Below, piece after piece: positions 7,907-13,765 of a DNA stretch of 64,000 bases. A program made the position numbers and the translations under genes. Origin of the DNA: Nitrospirales bacterium (GTDB lineage Bacteria > Nitrospirota > Nitrospiria > Nitrospirales > UBA8639); assembly GCA_965223295.1 (NCBI GenBank), contig CBDCWC010000002.1, positions 305,101 through 369,100 on the forward strand, written 5' to 3'. Every line of letters begins with the position of its first letter. The first letter of the stretch is position 1. The notes under the pieces were generated by a model, which was not told the DNA's origin, ran no database searches, and saw only the letters and a list, made by a program, of their open reading frames with translations.

Positions 7907-10900
7907 TCAAGAGAGAAGCTGTTTCGTGATAGCTCCCTGATCGTAAAATTGGCGAGGTTCAATCATTAACGCGTTTTTGTGACTTTCAGACACATTCCAT
8001 ATTGGTTGAAATCGTTGCACCAAAAGGCTAATGGAATGTGTGTCTCGTTGCAAAATGCCTCCGATAATTAATAAACAATTATCGGAAAAAATCTCATTTT
8101 GTTGTTTATTGGCAAACACATGATGTGGAATGGCCAAATCCAGAAAACCAAACTCATCTTCTAATGTGCCGAATGTCATGCCCTTGGCTGTTTGTGGCCG
8201 CTGTCTGACCAGTAGTAATCCACAGACTGTAATCATTTGTCCATTTTCTGTTTGACGGGCCATTTGGGTTGATAGATAGGGCAAGATTAGAGCCTTTCTG
8301 AGTCCTTCCATCGGATGTCCATGGAGTGAAAGATGGAATGTGTTGTAATCTTCTGTGATCGTTTCGTGTTGACTGAGTTTGTGGAAAACAGGACGATCAA
8401 TACGACTCAATGGGAGAGGTGAAAATATATTGGGTTGTTGCGATTGATAGTTCAGTTGATATTCTAGGATTTGCCATAGACTATGGCGTTGATCGAGCCC
8501 GAAACATGAAAATACATTTCCCATTGCTAAACGATGGATGATATTGTTGCGTAATGTGACTCGGCGAAGAAAATCGTGCAAGTCATGAAATGGTCTTTGA
8601 TTGATGAGCTGTTGCGCTTGCCGTTTCTCTAATCCTTTGACCACGCGCCATCCCAAACGTACGGCGTTGTTTTCTAGGGTACAGTCCCACTGTGATTGAT
8701 TAGGGTGAACGGGTAAAATTTGTACGCCATGGCGTTTAGCATCGTCAATGAGCGTGTGGACAGCATAGAATCCCAGAGGCTGGGAGTTAATGAGCGCGCA
8801 CAAAAAGATAGCTGGATAATGACATTTCACATATGCCGAGGCGTAGGCTAACAGCGCAAAACTTGCTGAGTGGCTTTCAGGAAATCCATATTGCGCAAAG
8901 CCTTTGATCTGTTGAAAGACACGTTCAGCAAAGGTTTGGGGAAGTCCGTTTCGTTGTAAGCCAGCCATTAAACGTGCGCCAGTTTTTTCAATAGAGCCTT
9001 CCGAACGCCATGCCGCAATCGCGCGGCGCAACTCATCAGCTTCTCCCGGTGTAAAGTCTGCCAGCTCAATAGCCATTTTCATGACTTGTTCTTGAAACAG
9101 CGGAATGCCGAGGGTTTTGCCTAAAATAGTCCTGAGCTTTGGATGAGGATAGTCGACTTCCTCTATCTTGCGGCGTCGTTTCAAATACGGGTGAACCATT
9201 TTTCCTTGGATTGGGCCTGGACGAACGATAGCAATTTGAATGACGAGGTCATAAAAATTTTTTGGCAAGAGCCGGCCCAGCATTGAGATTTGGGCGCGGC
9301 TTTCAATTTGAAAGGTTCCAACGGTGTCAGCATGTTGAATCATGCGAAATGTCTTCGGGTCATTGGCAGGAATTTCGTGGAGCTGCATGCCAATCGCATC
9401 CAGACTCTTTCGAAGGGTAGAAAGCATTCCCAGGGAAAGGATATCGATTTTCAAAAGCCCCAGATAGTCCAAGTCATACTTATCCCATTGAATGATCGTT
9501 CGTCCTTCCATGCGAGCGGGTTCAACAGGCACGATGTCAATGATTGGATCAGCCGATAGGGTAAAGCCTCCACTATGAATAGAAAGATGACGAGGAAATC
9601 CTTTCATCTCTTCGGTGAGTTCTTCGACCTGTTGTTGGCAATGTGGAATGTTCGTCTTGGCTGCTAACGAATCAAAGTTCTTCTCTATGTTTTTTGCTGA
9701 TTGATTGCCAATGTTCAAGCCTAGGCTTTTACTGACTTCACGAAAGGCCTGACGACGACGATAGGTCACAACCGCGCTGATCATGGCGGCACGATCTCGG
9801 CCATACTTGTCATAGATATAATGGATTACTTCTTCCCGCCGTTCATGTTCAAAGTCCACATCGATATCAGGCGGCTCTCCACGTTCGGCCGAAATAAAAC
9901 GTTCAAATAGAAGATTCATCTGAACAGGATCAATGGCCGTAATGCCTAGGCAATAACACATCACACTGTTTGCAGCGGAGCCTCGCCCTTGGCAGAGGAT
10001 CTTTTGCTTTCTCGCAAATTGTACGATGTCATAAATTGTTAAAAAGTAATCGGCAAAGCCTAAGTTTTTTGTGAGCATGAGTTCATGCCGAATTTGCCGT
10101 GCGACCTCTTTTGGAATCTTTCCATGATAGCGTATACGGGCTCCTTGCCATGTTTCATGTTCTAAATAGCTTTGTGCGGTATGATTTTGTGGAATCCATT
10201 CTGAAGGGTAGCGATAGCGCAGCTCACTGGGACAAAAGGTACAACGTTCAGCAATCTCTAGAGTATTAGAAAGAGCTTCTGGTATATCAGCAAACAATTG
10301 CTGCATCAGTTGAGGTGACTTGAGGTAGTGCTCGTTGTTAGAGAACAATCTGAATCCACTAGATTGCACAGATTGCCCATGTCGAATGGCCGTGAGAACA
10401 TCATGCAACTTTTGGCGTTCAGACACGTGATAATGCACGTCATTAGAGGCCGCAATTTTGCTGCCCCACCTCTGAGCGAGTTTCCGTGCCGTGTTGAGAC
10501 GTTGTTGGTCATGGCCGTCTTTGAAACGAGATACAGGAATGTACAAACGATCGTCAAAGAGTGTTTTGAGGAGAGGAAACGGGGCCTGTTCATGGGGTAG
10601 GGCAAGCAGGCCGTCATGGCCAGGTCGTGTCATAAAGTGTTGCAATTCGTCAATCGTAAGCGAGGCTTTTCCTTTAGGCTTATCTTGATGGCTGGTCGTA
10701 ATCATTCGGCATAAAAGGCTATAGGCTTGGCGATCTTGTGCGAGGAGTGTAAGGCGGGGATGTTGGGAAAGTGCTAGCGAGGTACCAACAATTAACTTAA
10801 GTGCTGGATAGTGTTTGGCAGCCCAATAGGCTTTGGGAATCGCATAGACACCATCATGATCCGTAATGGCGATAGCTGATAGTCCAAGTTCGGCGGCGCG

Positions 10901-10975
10901 GTGAATCAGTTCTTCAGGGTGAGAGGCTCCAGTCAAAAATGAAAAATTGGTCTTGCATTGCAATTCGGCATACAT
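7907..10975 (-). CDS. dnaE2: Error-prone DNA polymerase III alpha subunit (DnaE2/ImuC)
   Basis: PHP domain (YAELQCKTNFSFL, AITDHDG), GRGSAANS, PPDIDVDFEH, RHLSIHSGG, YGFPESHSASFA, C-terminal OB fold; last gene of the imu cassette. Confidence 0.95.
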   Translation of the reverse strand: MYAELQCKTNFSFLTGASHPEELIHRAAELGLSAIAITDHDGVYAIPKAYWAAKHYPALKLIVGTSLALSQHPRLTLLAQDRQAYSLLCRMITTSHQDKPKGKASLTIDELQHFMTRPGHDGLLALPHEQAPFPLLKTLFDDRLYIPVSRFKDGHDQQRLNTARKLAQRWGSKIAASNDVHYHVSERQKLHDVLTAIRHGQSVQSSGFRLFSNNEHYLKSPQLMQQLFADIPEALSNTLEIAERCTFCPSELRYRYPSEWIPQNHTAQSYLEHETWQGARIRYHGKIPKEVARQIRHELMLTKNLGFADYFLTIYDIVQFARKQKILCQGRGSAANSVMCYCLGITAIDPVQMNLLFERFISAERGEPPDIDVDFEHERREEVIHYIYDKYGRDRAAMISAVVTYRRRQAFREVSKSLGLNIGNQSAKNIEKNFDSLAAKTNIPHCQQQVEELTEEMKGFPRHLSIHSGGFTLSADPIIDIVPVEPARMEGRTIIQWDKYDLDYLGLLKIDILSLGMLSTLRKSLDAIGMQLHEIPANDPKTFRMIQHADTVGTFQIESRAQISMLGRLLPKNFYDLVIQIAIVRPGPIQGKMVHPYLKRRRKIEEVDYPHPKLRTILGKTLGIPLFQEQVMKMAIELADFTPGEADELRRAIAAWRSEGSIEKTGARLMAGLQRNGLPQTFAERVFQQIKGFAQYGFPESHSASFALLAYASAYVKCHYPAIFLCALINSQPLGFYAVHTLIDDAKRHGVQILPVHPNQSQWDCTLENNAVRLGWRVVKGLEKRQAQQLINQRPFHDLHDFLRRVTLRNNIIHRLAMGNVFSCFGLDQRHSLWQILEYQLNYQSQQPNIFSPLPLSRIDRPVFHKLSQHETITEDYNTFHLSLHGHPMEGLRKALILPYLSTQMARQTENGQMITVCGLLLVRQRPQTAKGMTFGTLEDEFGFLDLAIPHHVFANKQQNEIFSDNCLLIIGGILQRDTHSISLLVQRFQPIWNVSESHKNALMIEPRQFYDQGAITKQLLS

Positions 10976-10992
10976 CAATTCCAGATACCTTG

Positions 10993-12258
10993 TTAATCAA
11001 AATATCCATGAAGATAATAATCATTCGAACCGGGAATCTGAAAAATCCATAATCGTTCCCCAGTATGCGTGTGTATCGTGTAATAGTTTCTGTCAAAGGA
11101 GTGATCCCACCATTCTCCGCAGAGGTGCTCGGGCCCATCGGTCTCGATGATGTTCCATTGTGTTGTTCTACAGACGATAGATGAATAGCTCTTCTTTATG
11201 TGTTCGGGGTGCCTGAGGAGCCGGAGAGGGCGTTTCGGAAACGGAAGGCTCACGGTTGATGGGAGCTCCATAGTTTTTTGCCATGCCCGTTCTGGACAAT
11301 AATGTTCAATCGGAGAGGCCAGAAAAGATGTCCCCTTTCCCACTCGTTCTGTAATTCGTGCAATGAGTGATGTCCAGGCCTCGTGCTCGTCTTCTTGGCG
11401 ACTGAACAGGTTCGTCTGTGACCCATGCCATGGTGAGGTTTCTAGGGCTTGTAGCGAGAGAAAGATCACAGGTGACTTTAAGGGTTCTGTGTTGAGTGTT
11501 CGATGCAACCGCTCGCGCATGATAGCCAGAATGGTTTGAGGATTCGATTGAGGTAATGGGAAATCAATAATCCATCTGCGCATCGGTTCTCGAATTGTCG
11601 AATACGGTTCTTGTTTGATCACAAATTCTAGTGTTCCCATTCGTTCAGCTCGTCCGCGTAGCCGGACCGTCAATCGATTAAGCAACCTCTTAAGCATAAA
11701 CAAGAGCGGTTCTAGGTTTTGAATCGCGTAGCTTTCATCAATATCAATGGCTTCCACAATGTGCTCTTGTTTCGTAAAGAGCGGCCAAAGAAGGGACGTC
11801 GCATCGTTGGCGCGTTGAGCAATGAATAAGCCGAGTGTGCCAAATCTGGAGCCCCAAGTTGATGCTGGAAATTTGAGGAAATCTTCAATCGTACAAATTC
11901 CGAGTTGCTTGAGCGCAACGAGCATGTTGTCTGCGGTAGTACCTGAATAAAATGGGTCCCAATAATCCGTGATGGCATCAATTGGCAGCCTCAACTTTGT
12001 TGTACATTGATAGCGAGCGAGAGCCAAAGCTGTTGGGAGATCTTCACCGATAGCAAGGCTGGCTTGGACTTCAAAGGATGCCAGCATCTCTTGCAAGCCA
12101 GCTAGTACGACCTCCTCTGTATAAAGATGGCGAGATTTACCAATTCCTAAAAAAACCGCTTCATGACTCACAGCAATTTGTGGTGTCCAGTGTAGGCAGG
12201 CTTCAGCAAGAGCTGAAAGGGGAGACGGTGAGTCAAAGAGTAAGCACAGGACTTTCAT
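10993..12258 (-). CDS. imuB: ImuB, catalytically inactive Y-family polymerase-like protein
   Basis: Clamp-binding-like QTNLF, C-terminal GPEH..GEWW...RNYY...G..LWIF...YYLHGYFD typical of ImuB; sits between imuA and dnaE2. Confidence 0.85.
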   Translation of the reverse strand: MKVLCLLFDSPSPLSALAEACLHWTPQIAVSHEAVFLGIGKSRHLYTEEVVLAGLQEMLASFEVQASLAIGEDLPTALALARYQCTTKLRLPIDAITDYWDPFYSGTTADNMLVALKQLGICTIEDFLKFPASTWGSRFGTLGLFIAQRANDATSLLWPLFTKQEHIVEAIDIDESYAIQNLEPLLFMLKRLLNRLTVRLRGRAERMGTLEFVIKQEPYSTIREPMRRWIIDFPLPQSNPQTILAIMRERLHRTLNTEPLKSPVIFLSLQALETSPWHGSQTNLFSRQEDEHEAWTSLIARITERVGKGTSFLASPIEHYCPERAWQKTMELPSTVSLPFPKRPLRLLRHPEHIKKSYSSIVCRTTQWNIIETDGPEHLCGEWWDHSFDRNYYTIHTHTGERLWIFQIPGSNDYYLHGYFD

Positions 12259-12330: not shown

Positions 12331-12450
12331 GGGCAGTTCAAAAAAGTCCATCCAGCAAGGCCGCAGCCATTTTTGCGCGCGGAGCGTACTAATACTACGT
12401 GAGCACGGGAAAATGGCGAGAAAGCCGCTGGGGGTTTTTTTCAACAGCCC
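12331..12450. mobile_element. MITE/REP-like element, family A, copy 2 (120 bp)
   Basis: TIRs GGGCAGTTCAAAAAAG / GGGCTGTTGAAAAAAA; aligns with 4959-5078; contains the imuA stop codon. Confidence 0.85.
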
Positions 12451-12971
12451 CATGGTTGTTTGGTCACCATGACAGTGAGATCACCTGTGATGCCTTTCTG
12501 ATGAACATGAAGTTGCATGCGAATTGGCCATGCAGATTGTAGATAGTCTGAAAGAAGAATTAACACACAATTGGCTCTTTCTGTTGTTAGCTGCAAGCGT
12601 CGTAACATGGTCAAATTAAATGGTGCCGTATCGACAATCACGACCTGAAATAATTGACTGCGTAGGAGTTGGAGTGTCACCCACGGGACGTCTTTCCCAG
12701 CTTCATTAAACAGGAGCCGATCCAGGGCGACGTGTCGTTGAAGGACGGCGCAGGGATAGAGCGAGAGCACCGATTCTACCCAGGCCGCCTGTAAGTGAGG
12801 GTTTTCAGCAAGAAACTGCATCACAAGTTCAGTTTTCCCTTTTCCCGCAATTTCGGTCATGATTCCTCGTAGTATCCCAGATGGTATGAGTGAGCATTGG
12901 AATGTTTCCCTAGTTGGTGACTCATGAATTGCTCGAATCTGAGCGCGCAGCTGTTCTAATGATGACGACAT
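12441..12971 (-). CDS. imuA: ImuA-like RecA-fold protein
   Basis: Degenerate Walker A (AGKGKT), LLRSQLFQVVIVD, LRRLQL typical of ImuA/SulA-like proteins; position in cassette. Start reassigned to ATG 12971 because the upstream ORF extension is MITE sequence. Confidence 0.75.
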   Translation of the reverse strand: MSSSLEQLRAQIRAIHESPTRETFQCSLIPSGILRGIMTEIAGKGKTELVMQFLAENPHLQAAWVESVLSLYPCAVLQRHVALDRLLFNEAGKDVPWVTLQLLRSQLFQVVIVDTAPFNLTMLRRLQLTTERANCVLILLSDYLQSAWPIRMQLHVHQKGITGDLTVMVTKQPWGC

Positions 12972-13112
12972 GGGCACCTCTAAAAACTGATGATTTTTTC
13001 TGAGAGGAAGGAAGCGGTGCGCGGAAAACCGCAGTGTATGGGCCAATACATGAGGATTTGAGCACGCCGCTGACGCCGCCATCGGGAAAAAGGATAGTTT
13101 TTAGAGGTGCCC
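12972..13112. mobile_element. MITE family B, copy 1 (141 bp) with 4-bp TSD
   Basis: 17-bp TIR GGGCACCTCTAAAAACT; flanked by ACAT on both sides (12968-12971 and 13113-13116); homologous to 28663-28843 in opposite orientation. Confidence 0.92.
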
Positions 13113-13118
13113 ACATGT

Positions 13119-13709
13119 TTATGGTAATGAGCGAAGCACACCGACTAAGACCCCTTCAATTCTAAATAAGTGAGGTGGCTTTACCGTTATGGCATCATAC
13201 TGAGCATTTGCCGGACGCAATTCGATTGCTTGACGTTTCTTGTAAAACTTTTTGAGTGTTGCTTCACCATCAATCGATGCAACAACGGTCTGCCCGTTAT
13301 GAGCTGTGAATTGCTTGCGGATGATCACATAATCACCATCAACAATCGCATCGTCGATCATTGAATTCCCTCGTACTTGAAGCACATAGTGATCAAACCC
13401 AGTCTTGAGGAAATTCGCTGGGACTTCTGTCAATTCGCCATGCATAACATGTTCGATGGGTTTGCCTGCCGCCACTTTGCCCAAAAGAGGAAGGCGATTG
13501 GCTGTTTGGGTGACAGCCACGCTCCTTTGTCGAGCCTGGGTTGTGAGATGCCCCTGTTCTTTGAGCCGTCGGACATAGGCTGACACGGTTCCTCGTGATT
13601 TGAATGAAAAATGATTGGCAATATCTTGATTGGATGGCGCATAGCTATGCCGATGTGTAAATTCCCGGATAAAGTCTATGACCTGTTTCTGTTTTGGGGT
13701 TAAAGCCAT
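13119..13709 (-). CDS. lexA: LexA repressor
   Basis: N-terminal wHTH (LTPKQKQVIDFI...YAPSNQDIA), cleavage site LGKVAAG, catalytic Ser (RGNSM) and Lys (ATLKK). Confidence 0.95.
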   Translation of the reverse strand: MALTPKQKQVIDFIREFTHRHSYAPSNQDIANHFSFKSRGTVSAYVRRLKEQGHLTTQARQRSVAVTQTANRLPLLGKVAAGKPIEHVMHGELTEVPANFLKTGFDHYVLQVRGNSMIDDAIVDGDYVIIRKQFTAHNGQTVVASIDGEATLKKFYKKRQAIELRPANAQYDAITVKPPHLFRIEGVLVGVLRSLP

Positions 13710-13765
13710 AAAAAATCATAATCGCTCAGATATCGCTCAGTCAAGAGAACAGTTTTTTATGGCTT
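13703..13765 (-). promoter_or_regulatory. lexA promoter (sigma70-type, probably leaderless) with candidate operator
   Basis: Minus strand TTGACT (13744-13739), 18-nt spacer, TATGAT (13720-13715), then 5 nt to ATG with no SD. Spacer is CTGAGCGAT-AT-CTGAGCGAT. Whole region is flanked by a 13-bp perfect inverted repeat. Confidence 0.7.

Follow-up and report, generated by a model that had tools for sequence, protein, structure and literature searches.

The lexA promoter of this Nitrospirales genome (3.78 Mb, 3 contigs) raises the question of what a perfect direct repeat is doing between its −35 and −10 hexamers, which protein reads it, and how many genes answer to it. The locus lies within a 64,000-nt stretch of DNA (hereafter, the window), where the minus strand reads TTGACT-gagcgatatctgagcgat-TATGAT-ttttt-ATG and heads a lexA-imuA-imuB-dnaE2 cassette. 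Judged from sequence comparison, the repeat is very probably a LexA site that shuts off the repressor's own gene along with three error-prone DNA-repair genes.

The lexA promoter region, which reads cTTGACTGAGCGATATCTGAGCGATTATGATTTTTTATG on the minus strand, is resolved into its elements in Table 1. A promoter scan recovers TTGACT-18-TATGAT with 10/12 matches, and the minus-strand promoter with its perfect 11-bp-period repeat is exactly as the initial annotation had claimed. The 18-nt spacer is GAGCGATATCTGAGCGAT. The proposed operator extends from the last base of the −35 hexamer to one base short of the −10 hexamer, with its half-sites at 13739..13733 and 13728..13722 of the minus strand. 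In its longest perfect form, the repeat is the 9-mer CTGAGCGAT, present in two copies (13740..13732 and 13729..13721) at the 11-bp period. As the −10 hexamer and the ATG are only 5 nt apart, there is no room for a Shine-Dalgarno sequence at lexA, in contrast to recA of the same genome, which has a normal one. Taken as bare patterns, these repeats are not rare: the genome contains 14 perfect 9-mers at period 11 (14.4 expected), and GAGC-N7-GAGC, the motif put forward in the initial annotation, occurs 66 times against about 90 expected by chance, an estimate from base composition rather than from shuffled sequences. The significance of the site therefore comes from its position and its conservation. 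The 20-nt tandem as a whole is unique in the genome, and the consensus TGRGCGR-N4-TGRGCGR derived below has one exact match, at lexA.

Table 1. Elements of the lexA promoter and genes of the cassette, numbered from the first base of the window.
Feature	Position	Strand	Description
-35 hexamer TTGACT	13739..13744	-	Promoter scan; its last base opens operator half-site 1
Proposed LexA operator TGAGCGA-TATC-TGAGCGA	13722..13739	-	Direct repeat with 11-bp period; fills the promoter spacer
-10 hexamer TATGAT	13715..13720	-	Promoter scan
lexA start codon ATG	13707..13709	-	5 nt past the -10; predicted leaderless mRNA
lexA	13119..13709	-	196 aa; winged-helix DNA-binding domain and S24 autopeptidase; Pfam PF01726 (LexA_DNA_bind), PF00717 (Peptidase_S24)
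MITE-like insertion, 126 bp	12972..13097		Between lexA stop and imuA ATG; blastn gap against L004 and L005
imuA	12441..12971	-	176 aa from the ortholog-supported ATG at 12971; NF033429 ImuA 1.7e-13, below cut-off; cassette position
imuB-like gene	10993..12258	-	421 aa; weak Pol IV similarity; between imuA and dnaE2
dnaE2 (error-prone DNA polymerase)	7907..10978	-	1023 aa; NF004225, 1198 bits against a 939-bit cut-off

The product of lexA matches TIGR00498 above its cut-off (4e-51) as well as the solved LexA structures 3k2z and 3jso. Across 34 aligned homologs, neither the Ala-Gly cleavage site nor the columns of the catalytic Ser and Lys show any change, and cleavage of the repressor is therefore to be expected. 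The order lexA, imuA, imuB, dnaE2, on one strand and behind one promoter, is also found at five other loci (L004, L005, L150, L151 and L155). The assignments of imuA and imuB combine weak profile matches with position; orthologs of the imuB-like gene that are 81-85% identical occupy the same cassette in two related genomes (G041 and G042). The MITE-like element has 16-bp terminal inverted repeats (GGGCACCTCTAAAAAC...) and is present in 57 copies in the genome, and the insertion is missing from the two closest relatives (L004 and L005). It could weaken lexA-imuA co-transcription in this particular genome, and within the operon transcript it may fold into a hairpin.

Orthologous promoters were gathered through two genome searches, protein-homolog look-ups, and a pattern scan. 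The initial annotation had named a lack of conservation in such promoters as an outcome that would refute it; the site is kept in 9/9 of them. The corresponding LexAs are 58-93% identical to the one studied here, and all named members of this set are Nitrospirota. The nine promoters align as cTTGAC-TGrGCGr-ynny-TGrGCGr-y, where cTTGAC is invariant throughout and, of the 14 half-site columns, 10 are invariant and 4 vary between A and G only. All four columns of the 4-nt spacer vary. The −10 hexamer stays at the same position (TATTCT, TATTGT, TATCAT, TATGGT or TAATCT in the orthologs), and the stretch that follows it varies both in sequence and in length, with an ATG or GTG after 5-7 nt. From this column pattern, we take the conserved unit to be TGRGCGR, in which two positions vary (A/G), the A of GAGC among them. 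GAGC is thus not the conserved core that it was first thought to be, and GAGC-N7-GAGC was abandoned in favor of TGRGCGR-N4-TGRGCGR. The tandem site is still present in a Nitrospira genome (L152/L159) where lexA is followed by a glyoxalase gene rather than imuA; another tandem, TGAGCGG-CTTT-TCGGCGG, lies 30 nt further upstream there. A search of the L152/L159 genome for imuB gave no match. G043, in which lexA is unlinked from imuA, was intended as an independent check of regulation in trans and contains no imuB match.

Although the initial annotation had envisaged a general SOS box, to be sought at recA and other genes, a TGRGCGR tandem in promoter context was found at lexA only, both in this genome (G000) and in G041, G042, and G043. 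Tandems with one mismatch number nine in G000, against about 10 by a rough chance estimate, and all lie inside long ORFs. The two-mismatch intergenic matches in G000 include none with promoter context, and the nine near-matches inspected in G041-G043 likewise have none. The region upstream of recA (G000:C2:449300-449530) contains neither a TGRGCGR tandem nor a GTAACC palindrome, and no DNA-damage control of recA is evident from the sequence of this organism. With the site absent upstream of recA and the near-matches of four genomes either coding or outside promoters, the notion of a general SOS box was given up. At a larger scale, a pattern combining the −35 hexamer and the operator has 55 matches in about 185,000 species genomes (about 70 by a chance estimate), and it is followed by a −10 hexamer, an ATG, and a lexA gene in 4 of these, all from Nitrospirota. 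A scan of genome contigs with CTGAGCGATNNCTGAGCGNT returned 114 stretches, among which the two from Nitrospirales are already known lexA loci. The others come from unrelated, mostly high-GC genomes and, judged from their record titles, are probably chance matches. Each genome has one exact site, at lexA, which covers imuA-imuB-dnaE2 solely as part of the lexA operon. Since neither the pattern scan nor the regulon search gave another promoter-context site, the site appears private to the lexA promoter. The TGRGCGR tandem would be the private operator of a mutagenesis cassette and not a global SOS box, and the predicted regulon in this genome is the cassette alone.

Because no second promoter of this type (class A) was found, we examined its phylogenetic neighbors, which are of the TTACGCA type (class B), for action in trans. 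More distant LexA homologs share the layout of the class A promoter: TTGAC, a 7-bp unit occurring twice at an 11-bp period, and then the −10 hexamer. A period-11 repeat matching at at least 6/7 positions is present in 55/89 lexA promoters from several phyla, 36 of them with a perfect repeat. The control periods 8-10 and 12-14 are found in 5-12 promoters each, and about 8% of shuffles reach 6/7. The tandem TTACGCA-N4-TTACGCA occurs in Bdellovibrionota, Desulfuromonadales, and Acidobacteriota/Thermoanaerobaculia, and TTACGGT in one Pseudomonadota MAG and one Oligoflexia MAG. TACGGAA is the unit of the Bacteriovorax group, TTCACCT that of Syntrophobacteraceae, and GTTCGGT and KTTCTAT are those of Patescibacteria. 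The Patescibacteria promoters that were fetched carry GTTCGGT-N4-GTTCGGT at the same promoter-embedded position. The distance from the beginning of the tandem to the lexA start is 27-61 nt in classes A and B, most often 29-32 nt, a range that includes all class A proximal sites.

Two of these units were seen repeatedly at lexA with the 11-bp period: TTCACCT-N4-TTCACCT in Syntrophobacteraceae and allies (L170, L181, L202, L204 and L214) and TACGGAA-N4-TACGGA in the Bacteriovorax group (L167, L169, L172 and L184). Each has its own helix-3 signature in the LexA protein, SLNAVYKHLKQL and SLGSVQDYIKYL, respectively, and to our knowledge, neither is a described unit.

Outside lexA, the class B tandem behaves as the site of a regulon. 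A Halobacteriovorax genome contains seven exact TTACGC-N5-WTACGC tandems, where about 0.2 are estimated by chance. Two Bacteriovoracaceae genomes carry the TTACGCA tandem in their recA promoters (recA: TIGR02012, 6e-167 and 2.5e-169), and one of the two carries it in a Y-family polymerase promoter as well (Pol IV-like, 2e-35). As presence at recA and a polymerase is how a LexA regulon behaves, these sites support the same role for the class A site. The TTACGCA-N4-TTACGCA tandems of Bacteriovoracaceae/Halobacteriovorax were located at L311 (G047), L313 and L315 (G048), and L305-L309 (G044); besides recA and the Y-family polymerase, the promoters concerned include that of an ORF that looks ImuA-like by eye, without a profile match. 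This distribution differs from the published picture for Bdellovibrio bacteriovorus, with a TTAC-N3-GTAA box and recA outside LexA control (as summarized in PMC3323433 and PMC8565304).

These comparisons bear on whether the repeat has a regulatory role at all, or is instead a product of chance or slippage duplication preserved by close kinship only. Perfect 9-mers at period 11 are as frequent in the genome as chance predicts, and conservation among the five closest sequences, which are relatives with 77-93% LexA identity, is partly explained by plain linkage. We nevertheless consider it very unlikely that the repeat lacks a function, as its half-sites hold even where LexA identity drops to 58%, with the spacer, the discriminator, and the DNA upstream diverging around them; period 11 is in large excess over the 89 lexA promoters; and a related tandem, TTACGCA, is found again in promoters of recA and a polymerase.

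The protein that reads the repeat is indicated by co-variation: seven repeat-unit classes match distinct LexA helix-3 signatures. All class A LexAs have S-R-G-T-V-S-[AD]-Y, the TTACGCA-type LexAs have SLGTVQNY, SFGSVQRY or SYGTVHKH, and the remaining classes differ again. The classes are told apart by residues 39, 43, and 44, which match P40, E44, and E45 of E. coli LexA by alignment and fall inside helix 3, reported in the work on 3JSO to be the helix that reads the bases. Class A proteins with Ala44 have TGAGCGA sites, and those with Asp44 mostly have TGGGCGG. In a maximum-likelihood tree of 89 LexA proteins, the eight class A entries form one branch (support 100/99), and those with names are all Nitrospirota. 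This branch is nested among TTACGCA/TTACGGT-type LexAs from Bdellovibrionota and allies, with a TTACGGT-type protein as its nearest neighbor. The tree includes no alphaproteobacterial LexA, and the distance to that lineage is therefore not read from it. The TGRGCGR specificity would belong to a small Nitrospirota LexA clade and would be derived from TTACGCA-type LexAs. The initial annotation had instead seen the repeat as a one-base variant of the alphaproteobacterial GAAC/GTTC box. Aligned by strand and by their register after TTGAC, TGAGCGA and the Patescibacteria unit GTTCGGT agree at 1/7 positions. Together with the position in the tree, this makes the supposed one-base relationship look like a coincidence of strand and register.

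A different regulator might bind the repeat, either a LexA-like paralog with XRE-HTH and S24 domains or a cassette protein such as ImuA. The genome does encode a second S24 repressor-like protein, and it is this one that is conserved across the genus. The XRE-HTH S24 repressor (about 180-190 aa) lies outside the window (G000:C2:709480-710070; L002 and L034, with relatives L007-L028) and is the LexA-like protein conserved through the genus and the order. Its promoter, however, carries another, palindromic element: TTGACA and a spacer are followed by ATGTAACCATTGGTTAC and immediately by the ATG, so that the palindrome GTAACC-N3-GGTTAC abuts a leaderless start, and it is kept in about 20/22 genomes examined. 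The class A repeat unit, in turn, tracks helix 3 of the adjacent LexA over seven classes, and the site persists where imuA is absent (L152/L159). Binding by a protein other than the adjacent LexA is, on this evidence, very unlikely. We also considered the XRE-S24 protein as the true global regulator and rejected it, as its palindrome is conserved at its own promoter and not enriched elsewhere in G000; one other near-match to GTAACC-N3-GGTTAC in this genome appears to be in coding DNA, judged by sequence without an ORF check.

L005 is homologous to the window only from a point one base ahead of the −35 hexamer onward (L005 position 2963, window position 13745), and the site thus persists in a different upstream context. 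In this comparison, the promoter, operator, and cassette behave as a single transferable block. We further observe a patchy distribution of the clade A lexA cassette in the genus, most genomes of which match in the S24 domain only. Both the L005 boundary and this patchiness could be taken to mean that the direct repeats are the end of a mobile cassette, namely a recombination or attachment site, yet this is extremely unlikely given that L004 is syntenic with the window well upstream of the site, the repeat sits inside the promoter, some 30 nt ahead of the start codon, throughout classes A and B and in varied contexts, no recombinase lies near the repeat loci, and neither repeats at both cassette ends nor empty sites in relatives were seen.

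We therefore return to LexA and regard it as highly likely that TGAGCGA-TATC-TGAGCGA is the autoregulatory operator of the repressor encoded just downstream. A direct-repeat operator within the spacer of a leaderless, autoregulated lexA promoter, as proposed in the initial annotation, is likewise supported at the level of sequence. A LexA dimer would bind the two half-sites, whose spacing of one helical turn puts both on one face of the DNA, and as the operator fills the spacer from the end of the −35 to near the −10 hexamer, bound LexA would keep RNA polymerase off the promoter. Upon DNA damage, RecA-stimulated self-cleavage of LexA would free the promoter, and a leaderless lexA-imuA-imuB-dnaE2 transcript would be made, turning on error-prone translesion synthesis and resetting the repressor. 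Binding, repression, the leaderless start, and co-transcription are steps that we infer.

When compared to described LexA systems, the kind of site is familiar, whereas its particular letters look specific to a small group of Nitrospirota. The closest likeness is to the TTACGCA tandems, which share the arrangement of TTGAC, 7-bp unit, N4, 7-bp unit, and −10, many with an ATG 6 nt further on. TTACGCA-type LexAs are the nearest relatives of class A (48-53% identity), which is nested within them. The two types differ at 4/7 half-site positions (TTACGCA versus TGAGCGA) and at helix-3 residues 39, 43, and 44, and while the Bacteriovoracaceae tandem is also found at recA and a Y-family polymerase, the class A tandem appears private to lexA.

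In Pseudomonas putida, a lexA2-imuA-imuB-dnaE2 cassette is repressed by its own dedicated LexA, whose gene is co-transcribed with it (Abella et al. 2004, 2007, as summarized in PMC3901139). The two systems are alike in gene order, in pairing a dedicated LexA with its own cassette, and in having a second S24-type regulator in the genome. They differ in the box, which for P. putida LexA2 is palindromic, and in the nature of the second regulator, which in P. putida is a canonical LexA1 with a large regulon and here combines XRE-HTH and S24 domains and lacks an evident regulon.

Direct-repeat LexA boxes are known from Alphaproteobacteria, Balneolaeota, and Patescibacteria (PMC8565304, PMC7739468, PMC9578287), and an imuA-imuB-dnaE2-type cassette is often the sole LexA-regulated unit (PMC8565304, PMC7739468, PMC3323433). 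The alphaproteobacterial box, GTTC-N7-GTTC, is that of Caulobacter, Rhodobacter, and Rhizobium (PMC9578287, PMC8565304, PMC3323433). It resembles the site described here in being a direct repeat rather than a palindrome, in its 11-bp period, and in overlapping lexA and imuA-imuB-dnaE2 promoters. Unlike that box, the Nitrospirota site has a 7-bp unit, TGRGCGR, that is built on GCG and varies at its third base, lacks the GTTC (GAAC) core, is associated with a LexA nested among Bdellovibrionota types (in a tree without alphaproteobacterial LexA), and comes with no regulation of recA or uvrA that we could find. Direct-repeat motifs have also been reported for Patescibacteria (Sanchez-Osuna et al. 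2017, as cited in PMC7739468) and for Balneolaeota (TTACACATATTTTWTACATA; PMC7739468). These cases share the recognition of direct repeats by LexA and differ in their units and LexA clades; they also differ in that those motifs define multi-gene regulons. The expectation that the box had not been described before agrees with the searchable literature, in which we found no published description of its letters. This literature yielded no LexA motif for Nitrospirota and no TGRGCGR or TTACGCA units, an absence that is not conclusive.

LexA is unusual among regulators in how frequently the sequence it recognizes has changed, and each new box helps to trace the co-evolution of repressor and operator. 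The site described here provides a candidate LexA box for Nitrospirota, a phylum that includes nitrite oxidizers, and it would derive from a TTACGCA-type direct repeat rather than from the alphaproteobacterial one. We see an even balance for and against a fuller scenario, in which a Nitrospirota clade switched from TTACGCA-type to TGRGCGR recognition through few helix changes (Leu/Phe/Tyr39 to Arg, Gln/His43 to Ser, and residue 44 to Ala or Asp), and in which the promoter, operator, leaderless lexA, and genes for error-prone polymerases move as one unit, a self-contained mutagenesis module that is induced by damage. The analysis points to three helix positions (39, 43, and 44) that can be tested by residue swaps, and the 89 promoters with their seven repeat classes are a ready data set for LexA specificity. 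If the scenario is true, the recognition code of the LexA winged-helix domain would be readable from the seven or more unit classes that share this fixed promoter layout. As the sole evident target of the repressor is a patchily distributed error-prone polymerase cassette, damage-induced mutagenesis in these bacteria would be an accessory, self-regulated function rather than part of a global SOS response.
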